Shown here: positions 2,731-53,927 of the stretch, piece by piece
How the letters are laid out: each line of letters begins with the position of its first letter
Position numbering within the stretch: position 1 is the first letter of the stretch
Source of the DNA: a virus
Direction: 5' to 3' (one strand)
DNA length: 64,000 bases
IMG/VR virus record: IMGVR_UViG_3300030380_006483
The notes under the pieces: generated by a model
Seen by the model: the letters and a program-made list of their open reading frames with translations, nothing else
The model's database searches: none
What the model was told of the DNA's origin: nothing
Program-made: the position numbers and the translations under genes

Positions 2731-3579
2731 ATGAAAGTAAAACACAACAAGTACAAGAATACTGGTATTCTGTTTGAACTTCTAGTAAGGAAGATTACTT
2801 CCGATGCTATGAATAACAGCAACTCTAAGGCAGCATCTTTAGTAAAAAAATATTTTACTAAAAGTGAACTAGCCAATGAAAATAAACTATACCAGACAAT
2901 AAACAATTCAATATCATTATCAGAAGGTAAAGCTGAATCAGTATTATCTACAATACTTGATTTATCTAGAAAATTAGATAAGGATAAATTATCAAAAGAG
3001 AAATATAACCTTATTAAAGAAATAAAAGAAAACTTTGATATGGTTGATTTTTTCCAAGCTAAAATTAAAAGTTATAAACTTTTAGCATCAACATATATTC
3101 TTTTAGAATCACATAATAATAGAAAATTTGCAAATCCCGAATCTATTATTACATCAAAAATTACTATTTTAGAGCATATTACTTCAAATCCTGATACTAA
3201 AATATCTTTAACACCTTTAGTTGAAGATTTAATGAAATTAGATAAAGGAACACGTGCGCTTACTTATAAATTAATGCTTGAAAAATATAATACTAAATTT
3301 GATGATTTAACTACTGATCAAAAAGAAGTATTAAAAGAATACATAAATAGTGCTGCAGATGCCCCAAAACTTAAAGAATTTTTAAATTCTAAATTTGAAG
3401 CAATATCTACTATATTAAGAGAAAATATAGATAAAATAACTGAACCTGCACTTAAAATTAAAATCCAAGAAGTTATAAACCTTATTGAACCTATTTTAGA
3501 ATCTAGAAAGATAAAAGATGATCACCTTGTAGCGCTACTACAATATCTTGAACTTTCTAAGGAAATAAAGGCAGTATGA
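2731..3579 (+). CDS. Hypothetical helical protein in head module
   Basis: 282 aa ORF between portal and prohead protease, preceded by the ATATTTAT motif; no family recognised. Confidence 0.6.
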   Translation: MKVKHNKYKNTGILFELLVRKITSDAMNNSNSKAASLVKKYFTKSELANENKLYQTINNSISLSEGKAESVLSTILDLSRKLDKDKLSKEKYNLIKEIKENFDMVDFFQAKIKSYKLLASTYILLESHNNRKFANPESIITSKITILEHITSNPDTKISLTPLVEDLMKLDKGTRALTYKLMLEKYNTKFDDLTTDQKEVLKEYINSAADAPKLKEFLNSKFEAISTILRENIDKITEPALKIKIQEVINLIEPILESRKIKDDHLVALLQYLELSKEIKAV

Positions 3580-4655: not shown

Positions 4656-4688
4656 TACAGAGGACAAAGACGATAAATATTTATATAC

Positions 4689-21471: not shown

Positions 21472-22434
21472 ATGCCAAGTTGGAAAAAAGTCATAGTCTC
21501 CGGATCCCATGCAGAACTAAGTTCAGTTACAGGTTCATTTACAGGTTCATTTAAAGGAGTAGTTGTAGGTACTATTGCCTCTTCTTCTACTGCATTATTA
21601 GCTGGAACAGCTTCTGTTGCTACTAGAGCAAATTCTTTAGCTCCAACTGCAACTGCTTCATTCGCAGACAGTGCTACAACAGCTTCTCATGCATTAAATG
21701 TACCTAATACTGCATCACATGCACTAACTACAGTATCAGCTTCAATAGCCGATGAAGCTTCAACATTAAGTTCAACTGCAACGGCTTCATTTGCTGATAT
21801 ATCCACATTAGCTAGAGCAGGTTCAGGATCATTTAGTGGTTCATTTCAAGGTGATGGTTCAAATTTATCAGGAATTGCTACTACTTTAACTGTAGATGGT
21901 GATTCAGGAGCACAAGATGTAGATTTACAAACTGATGATTTACAAATATTAGGTACTGCAAATGAAATAGTAACTGCCGTTACAAAAGCTGGTAACGACG
22001 TAAGAGCAACTATTAGTTTACCTGATGATGTTACTATTGGACAAGATTTAACAGTTACTAGAGATGCTACTATTACTAGGAATTTAACTGTTCAAGGTAC
22101 AGCTTCTTTTCAACATACAACTGATTTAGATGTTGCAGATAGATTCATTAGATTAGCATCAGGATCAAATGCTGCAGGGGATGGTGGTATAGCTGTTATT
22201 CAATCTGGATCCAAAAACTCCGAAGCATTAGCTTATGATTCAGCCGTAACTAGATGGGGTTTTACTGGTTCTTTTGATCCATCTCAAAATACTATAGTTC
22301 CAGAAGCATTTGTTGCAGCGGTAATAGAAGGTGGGAGTGGAGATAATGATCCTACTGATACAATTGCTAAATATGCTAAAAAAGGAAATATATTTGTAGC
22401 AGATAACGGAGAAATATATGTTTATTCTTCATAA
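21472..22434 (+). CDS. Fibre-like structural protein (MPSWKK family 1)
   Basis: N-terminus MPSWKKVIVSGS is paralogous to 22773; contains the TASVATRANSLAPTATAS repeat. Confidence 0.65.
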   Translation: MPSWKKVIVSGSHAELSSVTGSFTGSFKGVVVGTIASSSTALLAGTASVATRANSLAPTATASFADSATTASHALNVPNTASHALTTVSASIADEASTLSSTATASFADISTLARAGSGSFSGSFQGDGSNLSGIATTLTVDGDSGAQDVDLQTDDLQILGTANEIVTAVTKAGNDVRATISLPDDVTIGQDLTVTRDATITRNLTVQGTASFQHTTDLDVADRFIRLASGSNAAGDGGIAVIQSGSKNSEALAYDSAVTRWGFTGSFDPSQNTIVPEAFVAAVIEGGSGDNDPTDTIAKYAKKGNIFVADNGEIYVYSS

Positions 22435-22449
22435 TAAATTTTAATAGTT

Positions 22450-22668
22450 TTGGGTTTTATTGCAAGCAAAATAGAAGTAAAAGAGGGAAAAAGTAAGGTA
22501 ATTGATAATGCAGAATTACCTCAAGATTTGCTTTTAGATAAGGCAGAATTACAAGTTCTTTTAAAAATGATTAAAAATTCTTCATTTGAAGGAAAAGATA
22601 TTGAACTGGTTTTTAAAATGACCTGGAAATTACAAGAAGCTTATTTATCTCTACAAGAGAATGAATAA
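22450..22668 (+). CDS. Small hypothetical protein (TTG start)
   Basis: 72 aa ORF filling the gap between fibre genes. Confidence 0.5.
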   Translation: MGFIASKIEVKEGKSKVIDNAELPQDLLLDKAELQVLLKMIKNSSFEGKDIELVFKMTWKLQEAYLSLQENE

Positions 22669-22713
22669 ATATATTTTACTTCTCCTCCATAAATTTAAAA
22701 TATTTATACTTGA

Positions 22714-22766
22714 TATTATCGGCCCTTAAGGGAAGTGGGCAGGCAATCCTGTAACCAACCATAATA
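22714..22766 (+). ncRNA. Candidate structured 5' UTR RNA (three-way junction)
   Basis: GC-rich island: UAUUAU(C)GG/CCAUAAUA outer stem, CCC-UUAA-GGG hairpin, and GG/CC plus GCAGG/CCUGU hairpin with an AA bulge. Lies between ATATTTAT (22700) and the ATG (22773). Confidence 0.5.
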
Positions 22767-22772
22767 AATTAT

Positions 22773-23399
22773 ATGCCTAGTTGGAAAAAACTTATTACTA
22801 GTGGCTCTAATGCTACTCTATCCTCACTATCAGTTGATAACCAAATAACGGGTTCATCTTATACAGGTTCTTTTACTGGTTCTTATCAAGGTGATGGTTC
22901 GGATTTAACAGGTATAAATCCTTTCCCATTTACTGGATCCGCTTCAGTCCTAGGAGATTTAAGATTAGACTCTCCATCAAATGATTACGTAGATGATGCT
23001 TATGTAAATGATTATTTAGTTGGTGGAACTGCTTTAATAGTTGAGGATAATGCTATATTTAGTGGTTCTGTAACTGTATTAAATTTATCAGGTTCAGTTT
23101 CAGGTTCATTCCAAGGACAAGTAAATACAGAATTATTAAGAATTAGTTCTCCAAATGATTATGTTGCTGATTATGTTGAAGATTATATAGCGGGTATAGC
23201 ATTAATTACAACAGGGTCAGCTATCATAGAAGGTGGGGCAGATATAATAGGACCTTTAAATCATTCACAAGGAGCAGTTGTATTAACTAGAGTATCTGAA
23301 AGTCTTAACTTTACAAATGATACAGATGCAGCTACTGGTGGAGTTCCTTTAGGAGGATTATACAGAAATGGAAACGATATTAAAATTAGAATAACTTAA
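22773..23399 (+). CDS. Fibre-like structural protein (MPSWKK family 2)
   Basis: MPSWKKLITSGS N-terminus; duplicated LRxxSPxNDYV..DY segment; C-terminal GGVPLGGLYRNG. Confidence 0.6.
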   Translation: MPSWKKLITSGSNATLSSLSVDNQITGSSYTGSFTGSYQGDGSDLTGINPFPFTGSASVLGDLRLDSPSNDYVDDAYVNDYLVGGTALIVEDNAIFSGSVTVLNLSGSVSGSFQGQVNTELLRISSPNDYVADYVEDYIAGIALITTGSAIIEGGADIIGPLNHSQGAVVLTRVSESLNFTNDTDAATGGVPLGGLYRNGNDIKIRIT

Positions 23400-23427
23400 C
23401 AATATTTATAACATATATTAATTAACT

Positions 23428-25746
23428 ATGGCAATTACTTTAAGAACAGGTTTAGGTAGAAAGCTTACCATCGCAGAGATGGATGAAAACTTTACTTTTT
23501 TAAGTAGCTCCTATGTAGTAAACAGTGTGACGGCTTCAATGACGGCTGGTTCAGCTTCAGTTGCTACAAGAGCTAATGGTTTAGCTCCAACGGTAACAGC
23601 TTCATTTGCTGATACAACTACATCGGCTTCTATATCTACCACTGCTCAAACATCATCCGTTGCTACAAGAGCTAATACTTTAGCTCCAACTGCAACAGCT
23701 ACATCTGCATCAACAGCAGTATTAGCCCAAACTGCTTCCGTTGCTACTAGGGCAAATGGTTTAGCTCCTACAGTTACAGCAACATCAGCCTCTACTGCTA
23801 TTGCAGCTCAAACAGCCTCAGTGGCTACAAGAGCAAATGGCTTAGCACCAACAGTTACAGCAACTTCTGCTTCAACTGCTATTGCAGCTCAAACAGCCTC
23901 AGTCGCTACAAGAGCAAATGCTTTAGCCCCTACAGTAACTGCCACTTCAGCTTCCGTAGCTGCAAGAGCAACTACTTTAAGTGCACAAGCTACAGCTTCA
24001 TTTGCAGACGTAGCAGGCACGGTACATGATGGTAACATAACTGCTACAAAAATTGCAGCAGATGCCGTTATTACAACTAAAATATTAAATAGTAATGTAA
24101 CAAATGCTAAATTAGCAAATGATAGTGTTACTATAGGTTCAACAGAAGTAGATTTAGGAGCTACAGCAGCTTCATTAACAGGGTTGACAAGCATTTCTGC
24201 TCAAACTGGTAGTTTTGTATTACAAGTATTTGAATCCGCTTCTACTATAATAACATCTGGATCAAACATTCTTGGTGATAAAGCAACTGATATTCAACAA
24301 ATTACAGGTAGTTTACTACAAACAGGTAGTATGACTGTTATAGGTAATATATCAGCTAGTGTAGGAGGATTTAGTGGTTCATTCCAAGGAGATGGTACAT
24401 TATTAACAGGTGTAATAGCTTCAGGTTCGATTCAATCAGCCTCTGTTGCTGCAAGAGCAACTACTTTAAGCCCAGCGGCTACGGCTGCATCATCATCAAC
24501 GGCAATATTAGCCCAAACAGCTTCTGTTGCTACAAGAGCAAATGCTTTAGCCCCTACAGTAACTGCCACTTCAGCCTCTGTTGCTGCAAGAGCAACTACT
24601 TTAAGTGCTGCGGCAACAGCAAGTTTTGCAGATAAAGCAAACGTCGCTGTAACATCAAATGTAATTCCTGTAACAGTAGTTAATGATGGAGGAAACAAAT
24701 ATGCATTTAATGGAGTAACTGCTCCAAAAATATCACTTAATAGAGGAGAATTATACAGATTTGATCTATCAGATTCAAGTAATAATGGTCACCCACTTAG
24801 ATTTAGATTACTTAATGATACCTCATACACACCAGGAGTAAATGCAGTAGGTACACCAGGTCAAGCAGGTGCATATGTGGATTTTGATGTTAATTTTTCA
24901 ACATCAGCATCTTTAAAATATTACTGTACATCCCATGGAAATGGAATGGGTAATACAGCTCAAGTACCAGATTTTCTTAATAATAGTGGTTCATTTAGTG
25001 GTTCTTATCAAGGTGATGGTTCTAATATAACTGCAGTATCAGCAATTTCATCATCTACAGCAGTATTAGCTCAAACAGCCTCTGTTGCTACTAGAGCTAA
25101 TGGTTTAGCACCAACAGTTACAGCATCATTTGCAGATTTAGCAAGTAATGTACGTAACCTTTCCATTTCAGGATCTGGAGCTATATCAGGTTCATTATTA
25201 GTAACAGGAAGTTCTGCTCTAGCAATAAGAGTTAGTGGTAGTACAGCTTTAACAGGTAGTATTTTCCAAACAGGATCATTTAACGTCTCGGGTAGTAGTA
25301 TGTTATCTGGATCTGTAAGTATTACTGGTAGCACAAATATAATTGGTGCCGTAAGTTCAAGTGATACAGGTAGGTTTAAGAGTTTAGGTATTAATGTTGC
25401 CCCTTCAGGTGTAGCCGGAGCTATATTAGCTACTAATGATGTTGTTGCATTTGCCTCTTCAGATGAAAGATTAAAGGAAAATCTAGAACCAATTGGAAGT
25501 GCAGTTGAAAAAGTAGAACAAATAACAGGATATACTTATAATTGGATTCCTATGGAAGATATTCACGTATATGGTGATATGAAAGATATAGGTGTAATAG
25601 CACAAGAAGTAGAAAAAGTATTACCTGAAATAGTATCAGATAGAGAAAATGGATATAAAGCAATTAAATATGATAAATTGACAGCTGTATTAATCCAAGC
25701 AGTAAAAGAATTATCTGATAGAGTTAAAACTTTAGAAAATAAATAA
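23428..25746 (+). CDS. Fibre protein with TASVATRANxLAPT repeats, cupredoxin-like insert and C-terminal S74 chaperone
   Basis: About 8 copies of the Ala/Thr/Ser repeat; GHPLRF...YYCTSHGNGM; SDERLKENL...DIGVIAQEVEKVLPE. Confidence 0.85.
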   Translation: MAITLRTGLGRKLTIAEMDENFTFLSSSYVVNSVTASMTAGSASVATRANGLAPTVTASFADTTTSASISTTAQTSSVATRANTLAPTATATSASTAVLAQTASVATRANGLAPTVTATSASTAIAAQTASVATRANGLAPTVTATSASTAIAAQTASVATRANALAPTVTATSASVAARATTLSAQATASFADVAGTVHDGNITATKIAADAVITTKILNSNVTNAKLANDSVTIGSTEVDLGATAASLTGLTSISAQTGSFVLQVFESASTIITSGSNILGDKATDIQQITGSLLQTGSMTVIGNISASVGGFSGSFQGDGTLLTGVIASGSIQSASVAARATTLSPAATAASSSTAILAQTASVATRANALAPTVTATSASVAARATTLSAAATASFADKANVAVTSNVIPVTVVNDGGNKYAFNGVTAPKISLNRGELYRFDLSDSSNNGHPLRFRLLNDTSYTPGVNAVGTPGQAGAYVDFDVNFSTSASLKYYCTSHGNGMGNTAQVPDFLNNSGSFSGSYQGDGSNITAVSAISSSTAVLAQTASVATRANGLAPTVTASFADLASNVRNLSISGSGAISGSLLVTGSSALAIRVSGSTALTGSIFQTGSFNVSGSSMLSGSVSITGSTNIIGAVSSSDTGRFKSLGINVAPSGVAGAILATNDVVAFASSDERLKENLEPIGSAVEKVEQITGYTYNWIPMEDIHVYGDMKDIGVIAQEVEKVLPEIVSDRENGYKAIKYDKLTAVLIQAVKELSDRVKTLENK

Positions 25747-53847: not shown

Positions 53848-53920
53848 TGCGGGGTGGAGCAGAAGGTAGCTCGCTGGGCTCATAACCCAGAGGTCAGAGG
53901 TTCGAATCCTCTCCCCGCCA
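53848..53920 (+). tRNA. tRNA-Met(CAT), initiator type; CCA not encoded
   Basis: Cloverleaf with 1:72 mismatch (T/C), A11:U24, anticodon stem CTGGG/CCCAG with three G-C pairs, loop CTCATAA and T-loop TTCGAAT. Confidence 0.93.
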
Positions 53921-53927
53921 CTATTTT

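Follow-up and report, generated by a model that had tools for sequence, protein, structure and literature searches.

Genes and promoter-like sequences around the leader element

The element described here occupies positions 22714 to 22766 (+ strand) of a 64,000-nucleotide stretch of viral DNA, which is referred to below in its entirety as the window. All genes are on the + strand, and the neighbors of the element are tail fiber, baseplate wedge, and tail sheath genes. Among cultured phages, Flavobacterium phage vB_FspM_immuto is the closest relative; the sheath proteins of immuto and the window are 53% identical. Upstream of the element are a gene for a 320-amino-acid (aa) baseplate wedge-like protein (21472 to 22434, +; phrog_18186) and a gene for a 72-aa protein with a TTG start codon (22450 to 22668, +), here called X. 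Homologs of the wedge-like protein precede X in related contigs, as found by blastx. Alignment of X and its homologs (alignment A3) delineated a family of 55 to 100 aa with the N-terminus MG-x-x-x-K and a near-invariant glycine and lysine in the core. X was always located between the baseplate wedge-like gene and the fiber leader RNA, directly upstream of the element in both of the sub-lineages described below, and two diverged X paralogs are present in tandem in immuto-type phages.

Downstream of the element, an ATG at 22773 opens a 208-aa gene (22773 to 23399, +) whose product starts MPSWKKLITSGS and was recognized from an alignment of the N-terminal anchor of its family, in which M1, P2, W4, K6, and G11 are invariant. 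The 208-aa protein matched no Pfam or PHROG family, and its homolog in immuto is annotated as a "putative tail fiber-like protein." Judged from the aligned sequences, the MPxWKK start is the conserved N-terminal anchor of a tail fiber family. The proteins that carry it vary widely in length, from 98 aa in close relatives through 208 aa in the window to as many as 1912 aa elsewhere. The next gene in the window encodes a 772-aa distal tail fiber with a C-terminal Peptidase_S74 chaperone domain (23428 to 25746, +) and is preceded by a late box of its own at 23402; anchor and distal fiber thus seem to be split into two genes in the window.

Five contigs (L059, L061, L065, L073, and L080) carry a fiber paralog that starts MASWKK, at about position 1501, and is preceded by a TATTTATA box and AGGAG in place of the element. 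The MPSWKK copy in the same contigs, about 1.5 kb downstream (at approximately 3050 to 3130), has both X and the element. Since the element precedes the MPSWKK copy only, any control that it exerts would be specific to one of two fibers with the same anchor.

The promoter-like box upstream of the element, ATATTTATA (22700 to 22708, +), recurs before the starts of open reading frames (ORFs) in the window. Eleven of its 12 copies are on the + strand (at 4677, 9570, 22700, 23402, 25816, 27903, 28473, 29521, 31648, 54470, and 60598), always on the coding strand and before many structural genes. The initial annotation, made from the sequence of the window alone, had described a late motif at this position, and the 11 + strand copies near ORF starts bear this out. 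An A/T-swapped cousin of the T4 late box TATAAATA, ATATTTATA is probably the late promoter of the Flavobacterium-type myovirus lineage. The + strand copies are located 12 to 36 nucleotides (nt) before an ATG, implying very short late leaders, with the sole exception of the copy at the element, which is 73 nt from the ATG. On the basis of this distance, the element looks like an insert of ~50 nt in a late leader that would be very short without it. A transcript start at about position 22714, the first base of the first helix of the element, is predicted if the geometry resembles that of T4 late promoters.

Sequence and predicted fold of the element

The 53-nt element, with the sequence UAUUAUCGGCCCUUAAGGGAAGUGGGCAGGCAAUCCUGUAACCAACCAUAAUA, lies between the ATATTTATA box and the ATG at 22773. 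Its minimum-free-energy fold is a three-way junction of the helices P1, P2, and P3; together with the RNAalifold prediction described below, this result upholds the coordinates, sequence, and overall fold given in the initial annotation. The 5′ arm of P1, UAUUAU(C)GG (22714 to 22722, +), in which C22720 is bulged, was assigned from the minimum-free-energy fold, RNAalifold, and covariation. The 3′ arm of P1, CCAUAAUA (22759 to 22766, +), occupies the usual ribosome-binding position (−14 to −7) and is separated from the AUG at 22773 by a 6-nt spacer, AAUUAU (22767 to 22772, +). P2 (22723 to 22732, +) is the hairpin CCC-UUAA-GGG, with CCC (22723 to 22725) paired to GGG (22730 to 22732) around a UUAA loop. 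P3 (22736 to 22757, +) has its arms at 22736 to 22743 and 22748 to 22757 and consists, in order, of U-A, G-C, and G-C pairs, an AA bulge (22753 and 22754), a G·U pair (G22739·U22752), a C-G pair, and then a variable stem and loop (AGG-CAAU-CCU in the window). The junction strands are AAG between P2 and P3 (J2/3; 22733 to 22735, +) and a single A joining P3 to P1 (J3/1; 22758, +), and both correspond to invariant columns in the aligned set. The strand J2/3 had earlier been given as AAGU; AAG stands, but the U pairs with A22757 and belongs to P3.

The element is also the GC island that it had been taken for: its 53 nt have a G+C content of 45.3%, which rises to 57.5% in the 40-nt core, whereas the window as a whole has 30.6% and the flank upstream 23.7%. 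An argument from the stability of the single sequence fails, because folding energy showed no gain over shuffled sequence (z = +0.72; 153 of 200 shuffles folded equally well or better). The case for the element beyond chance is comparative, not energetic. An alternative fold was also considered. A hairpin that sequesters the AUG (CCAAC:GUUGG plus CAUA:UAUG) was seen for the window at 15°C and was rejected, as it was unsupported across the family. Family-wide, the alternative hairpin opposing P1 had a mean z of −0.16, with the AUG fully paired in 18%.

Comparative evidence for a conserved RNA structure

A strict core pattern matched 38 contigs in IMG/VR, and a looser pattern returned at least 120 matches; combination with the strict set yielded 142 distinct instances with flanks, of which two were false. 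The comparative set comprised 135 distinct elements, from more than 120 IMG/VR contigs, in an unguided MAFFT alignment. RNAalifold, applied to this alignment, independently gave P1, P2, and P3. In total, 96.4% of the pair cells were paired, compared with 85.2% after column shuffling (none of 500 shuffles reached 96.4%) and with 24 to 51% in a control in which the pairing partners were slid. The covariation score was 0.324, versus 0.04 to 0.09 with slid partners. Double compensatory changes were found in 9 of the 18 pairs among the 135 elements, although the instances are phylogenetically related and such counts overstate their independence.

All three helices contribute to this signal. P1, in which columns 28 to 36 pair with columns 103 to 110 of alignment A2, has two-sided changes in 6 of its 8 pairs, and one P1 pair is A-U in 112 sequences and G-C in 17. 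P2 ranges from 2 to 9 bp among the relatives, as parsed by script; at its third pair, C-G (67 sequences) alternates with U-A (50 sequences). Within P3, columns 70/94 are A-U in 50, U-A in 50, and C-G in 25 sequences, and columns 71/93 are C-G in 37, G-C in 35, U-A in 11, and A-U in 8. The outer P3 pair, otherwise invariant, is changed from G-C to A-U with compensation in L048 to L050. A pairwise comparison of the window and immuto likewise revealed compensatory changes from A-U to C-G in P3 and from GG/CC to GA/UC in P1. The contigs that bear the element share a virion module, with capsid and sheath proteins ~50% identical to those of the window. The element is conserved far better than the neighboring proteins: ~24 junction nucleotides are invariant, whereas the tail sheath is only ~53% identical between the window and immuto. 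Covariation among homologous leaders upstream of MPxWKK genes, which had been named in the initial annotation as a check on its proposal, is therefore present, and the contrary outcome, leaders with neither covariation nor conservation, is not what was found.

The variation among members is also informative as to the molecule under selection. G·U pairs are common in several paired columns (124 of 135 sequences at G22739·U22752), which argues for an RNA of the sense strand rather than for the antisense strand or a DNA cruciform. Helix lengths differ among members by non-multiples of three, so the stretch is non-coding. An alternative is that conservation acts on the DNA, as a downstream promoter element, a protein binding site, or a hotspot of recombination or homing, and that the RNA fold is incidental. 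A promoter-like box does lie just upstream, and several contigs have homing endonuclease genes inserted at precisely this junction. However, compensatory double changes keep the pairing in three helices, and pairing is kept though helix lengths vary; the G·U columns would turn into A·C mismatches in a DNA cruciform or in the opposite strand; and the sub-lineage that uses Shine-Dalgarno (SD) sites keeps the element without the promoter box. We consider conservation at the DNA level highly improbable.

The inserted genes were of two kinds. A GIY-YIG plus NUMOD1 gene comes right after the element in L013 (2203 to 2916, +) and L130 (10525 to 11247, −), and an HNH gene does so in L090 (1553 to 1795, −) and L187 (1443 to 1643, +). 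Such insertions account for the few contigs in which the element is not followed by a fiber gene; in L187, the fiber gene is located ~200 nt after the HNH gene. The inserted homing endonuclease genes begin at the same distance from the element as the fiber gene does, and the HNH genes of L090 and L187 retain the first three fiber codons, ATG CCA AAT, thereby reusing the leader and start.

Distribution in phage and bacterial genomes

A search seeded with the downstream MPxWKK protein only, and thus independent of the RNA pattern, recovered 45 loci. One covariance model match was present at 43 of these; the other two loci had no upstream DNA or only the paralog starting MASWKK. The exact core GGAAGU.G.C...G.AACCAA.C was kept in 40 of the 43. 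The model found a single copy in the window (80.4 bits, with the runner-up at 16.5 bits) and exactly one copy in each of five phage genomes of 105 to 177 kb. When 3 kb around the site was compared by blastn with 50,697 phage records, immuto phages matched at 22688 to 22828 (76%), which corresponds to the leader and the first codons of the fiber gene; the only other match in these records was a weak one, of a neighboring gene to Synechococcus phages. Searches of cultured phages by blastn and tblastn with the version of the element from the SD lineage returned immuto or nothing, and vB_FspM_immuto is the only cultured carrier found.

A pattern scan of bacterial genomes gave at least 120 matches. 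Among those listed, all but one were chance or coding matches, and the one true instance is on a phage-like contig of 15 kb that had been binned with a Pelagibacter MAG. The covariance model had no matches at E ≤ 1e-4 in 151 Flavobacteriaceae genomes. A match in an Arenibacter genome (35.7 bits) lies inside dnaN and was rejected as a false positive. In the genomes searched, the motif is specific to phages. Many Bacteroidota genomes (including the loci L243, L288, L290, and L322 from Bacteroidota MAGs) contain a conserved coding stretch of 26 nt, GGAAGTRGACNNNCAGGTAACCAAYC, that also matches the loose DNA pattern; this stretch has no relation to the RNA and can mislead searches by pattern only.

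Two sub-lineages with different translation initiation signals

The elements form two groups that differ in the length of P2 and in the signals around the element. In the short-P2 group, to which the window and immuto belong, a TATTTA box is present upstream in 81 of 97 members, and there is no SD site. In the long-P2 group, by comparison, the box was found in 0 of 43 members, an AAGGAG-like SD sequence is located inside the 3′ arm of P1 in 43/43, and the stop codon of the upstream X gene abuts P1. The P1 pairs 28/110 and 29/109 become C-G and U·G in the long-P2 group, pairing the guanines of the SD sequence; the two outer P1 pairs in the SD lineage were counted as C-G 25, U·G 23, and C-G 13. 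Of the long ORFs, 70% on the long-P2 contigs but 12% on the others are preceded by an SD-like motif, indicating that the same RNA core is kept where hosts initiate translation differently.

In 91% of the instances, the core ends 12 to 19 nt before the ATG, which places the 3′ arm of P1 over the ribosome-binding position. A structured RNA that abuts or overlaps the ribosome-binding site, as it does here for the fiber gene, is the arrangement expected of a translational operator. Several leaders of the SD lineage (L053, L069, L080, L139, L143, and L146) also have, between the element and the ATG, a two-codon mini-ORF, AUG AAU UAA, which ends directly before the fiber AUG (GGAGAAUGAAUUAAAUGCC) and may be a start-stop element or may be due to chance.

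The same geometry bears on a second alternative, namely, that the element is a constitutive structure that acts without a trans-acting partner, such as a stabilizer at the 5′ end of the late fiber mRNA, a fixed attenuator that keeps fiber stoichiometry low or couples translation to X, an RNase processing site, or an unrecognized self-cleaving ribozyme. Transcripts of the Flavobacterium-type lineage are predicted to start at the first base of P1, and a 5′-terminal structure can protect mRNA from decay that depends on the 5′ end, as in the ompA leader. The X stop codon that abuts P1 in the SD lineage is the classic geometry of translational coupling, and the small size and invariant core of the element resemble those of small ribozymes. 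A stabilizer or attenuator, however, needs pairing, not ~24 invariant nucleotides amid proteins that are ~50% identical. Moreover, the element of the SD lineage is internal to an operon rather than 5′-terminal, the fold is not selected for stability, and no ribozyme family matched at E ≤ 10. A constitutive role is, in our estimation, unlikely.

Complementarity between hairpin loops and the start region

Where the hairpins of the element are long, their loops tend to be complementary to the start of the fiber gene. All long P2 hairpins (6 to 9 bp, with covarying stems) have the loop UGGCA, UUGGCG, or UGGCU, which is complementary to (A)UGCCA(A), and codon 2 is CCA in 42/42 long-P2 members, compared with CCA, CCG, CCT, or CCC elsewhere. 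In separate lineages with a long P3, the loop is GGCAUA, the complement of U-AUGCC; in other members it is ACUCACU, the complement of an AGUGAGU that immediately precedes the ATG. In total, complementarity of at least 5 nt between loop and start was present in 35 of 51 long-loop instances, which stem from only three or four independent lineages, whereas 4.6 were expected and the maximum was 11 among 1,000 loop shuffles. The longest matches were found in members with long spacers (21 to 33 nt). The pairings between loop and AUG are beyond covariation analysis, because AUGCC is fixed by the protein. The minimal element of the window has no long loop, and the AUG is mostly unpaired in its ensemble at 37°C while the junction is folded; occlusion in the window would therefore rest on P1, 6 nt from the AUG.

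Comparison with known RNA families

In a cmscan search of the window against Rfam 15 (4,227 families) at the gathering score, no family matched the element; the only Rfam family in the window was a tRNA-Met with the anticodon CAT (53848 to 53921, +; 63.3 bits). At E ≤ 10, positions 22600 to 22850 of the window and positions 1120 to 1260 of L054, a divergent member, gave only chance matches, such as those to snoRNAs and lncRNA fragments. The initial annotation had proposed an undescribed cis-regulatory RNA in a fiber leader, and the conservation, covariation, fixed position relative to the ribosome-binding site, single copy per genome, and absence of an Rfam family all support this proposal.

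The suggested resemblance to c-di-GMP-II riboswitches found no support, since RF01786 matched neither of the two divergent members at E ≤ 10. The CAG...CUG compared with the c-di-GMP-II core sits in the freely varying stem of P3, and only GGGC...GUAACC is conserved; short strings of the latter type are presumably common to both RNAs. Both are G+C-rich structured elements in 5′ leaders, but the genes of c-di-GMP-II riboswitches are related to c-di-GMP, whereas the element precedes a fiber gene and has no kink-turn or pseudoknot. The lack of these two features had been observed for the single sequence and holds for the 135-sequence consensus, a plain three-way junction. The glutamine riboswitch (RF01739 and RF01704), considered because of what we took to be a similar GGAAGU(A/G)GG and an occurrence in marine myophages, did not match at E ≤ 10, and neither did the preQ1 and S15-leader families or the self-cleaving ribozymes (hammerhead, twister, twister-sister, pistol, hatchet, and HDV-like). 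The junction strands AAG and A also do not fit the hammerhead core.

Structural analogies can be drawn to several well-known RNAs. The purine (add adenine) riboswitch likewise has three helices, an A-U-rich covarying P1, an invariant junction, and the 3′ arm of P1 or adjoining sequence at the ribosome-binding site. Compared with it, the element has shorter junction strands (0, 3, and 1 nt), no conserved loop-loop kissing, and other invariant pairs; it is restricted to phages, precedes a structural gene, and lacks an Rfam match. The S15 leaders and the S15 site of 16S rRNA combine a three-helix junction with a conserved G·U/G-C step. The element has such a junction and step, a possible protein recognition surface, but the analogy is structural only, as the regulated gene is not rpsO and no S15-leader family of Rfam matches. 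In the T4 gene 32 pseudoknot, the T4 gp43 and RegA operators, the MS2/PP7 coat protein hairpin, and the autogenous control of the P22 scaffolding protein, a phage protein represses the translation of its own gene or of a partner. These operators follow the same logic as is proposed here, a structured RNA at the ribosome-binding site; they are simple hairpins or pseudoknots, each confined to one phage group, whereas the element is a three-way junction of invariant sequence across hosts with different initiation modes. The orphan Rfam motifs GP20-a/b, manA, wcaG, and PhotoRC are likewise conserved structures, identified through comparative genomics, that directly precede particular phage genes, and none matches the element.

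The motif was also sought in the literature. Fremin et al. reported 8,495 unnamed "csRNAs" from IMG/VR in 2023 (PMC10690425), and the motif may be among these candidates; the main text of that article mentions neither "tail" nor Flavobacteria. Among the full-text matches listed for the conserved strings, only primers were found. A literature search by topic returned no description of the motif, and the Minerva preprint has no mention of fibers.

Evidence for and against a metabolite riboswitch

A further alternative is that the element is a metabolite riboswitch of a new class, in which the junction forms the ligand pocket and stabilization of P1 by the ligand switches fiber translation. The ligand would need to be available in hosts of different phyla or be made by the phage. 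A conserved, covarying structure in a 5′ leader, as expected of a riboswitch, is present. The compact junction with invariant nucleotides, the covarying helices, and the marginal, A-U-rich P1 whose 3′ arm contains the SD sequence are all in keeping with this reading, and a lack of stability gain over shuffles is expected of a switchable fold. As for an expression platform, the SD sequence coincides with the 3′ arm of P1 in 43/43 members of the long-P2 group, loops show complementarity to the region of the AUG, and no conserved alternative fold was found. That the core is kept in phages of both SD-using and SD-less hosts would favor a universal ligand.

The lineage is also one that makes 7-deazaguanine precursors in bulk. 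In the DNA of phage immuto, which encodes the preQ1 pathway, every G is replaced by fdPreQ1, a derivative of preQ1 (PMC10516641). QueC homologs were found in 4/5 large element-bearing genomes (G002:C1:64127-64804, G003:C1:56638-57342, G004:C1:58974-59648, and MW353175.1:18622-19287). QueC was not found in the immuto-like genome G001, which is 96% complete, and a TGT model had no match in the five element-bearing genomes. Replacement of G may thus not be universal in the lineage, and we regard the link to 7-deazaguanines as a weak lead, not as support. The genome without QueC counts against the riboswitch, as do the nature of the regulated gene, which encodes a virion structural protein rather than a metabolic or transport function, and the bacterial scans, with one true instance among the matches listed (on a phage-like contig) and none in the 151 Flavobacteriaceae genomes. 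No Rfam riboswitch model matches, c-di-GMP-II included. Taken with these points, a metabolite riboswitch is a minority possibility.

A proposed role in translational control of the fiber gene

The position and conservation of the element suggest that it most likely controls the amount of fiber protein made. The specific reading that we prefer, in which a new, phage-specific structured RNA in the 5′ leader gates the initiation of translation on the fiber anchor gene, has in our view about an even chance of being correct. Under this model, a trans-acting factor would dock at the invariant junction. When the junction is folded and stabilized by its partner, the ribosome-binding site would be occluded and fiber synthesis held down; when the junction is open, the fiber gene would be translated, although the direction of control could be the reverse of that assumed here. 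The two sub-lineages would differ in context. In the Flavobacterium-type lineage, to which the window belongs, the element would form the extreme 5′ end of the late transcript. In the SD lineage, ribosomes that terminate on X could open the junction, because the X stop codon abuts P1.

The favored partner in this model is a phage-encoded protein, either X or a component of the fiber or baseplate, which would feed back on fiber production. AlphaFold2 predicted X to be a helical hairpin (helices at residues 31 to 43 and 48 to 71) with a core pLDDT above 90. X matched no Pfam or PHROG family, a Foldseek search against the PDB returned nothing below E = 2, and no RNA-binding family or fold could be assigned to it. 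X is a candidate partner by its position only.

Implications for fiber expression in aquatic myoviruses

The element is a real, new, and well-populated RNA motif that most probably controls the translation of a tail fiber gene. Tail fibers decide host range, and control of phage structural genes by structured leader RNAs is, to our knowledge, almost without precedent. More than 130 distinct sequences from uncultured aquatic myoviruses, together with the culturable pair of immuto and Flavobacterium sp. LMO8, make this an orphan motif with a tractable system. Its covariance model is a ready marker for the annotation of fiber modules in viromes.

What the motif would mean for phage biology depends on its partner. 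With a phage protein as its partner, it would represent a new circuit of autoregulation in virion assembly; with a metabolite, it would define a new class of riboswitch whose target is unprecedented. The most far-reaching version of the latter, a new class of riboswitch that senses the state of the infected cell and gates production of the receptor-binding fiber in phages of both Bacteroidota-type and SD-using hosts, is doubtful on the present comparative evidence. If true, it would be the first RNA sensor known to gate the receptor-binding fiber of a virion and would time or dose fiber synthesis in response to a signal such as a 7-deazaguanine precursor, the nucleotide pool, or a second messenger. 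In either case, one RNA device would serve two modes of translation initiation, with the SD sequence embedded in P1 in one lineage and an SD-less leader that begins at P1 in the other.
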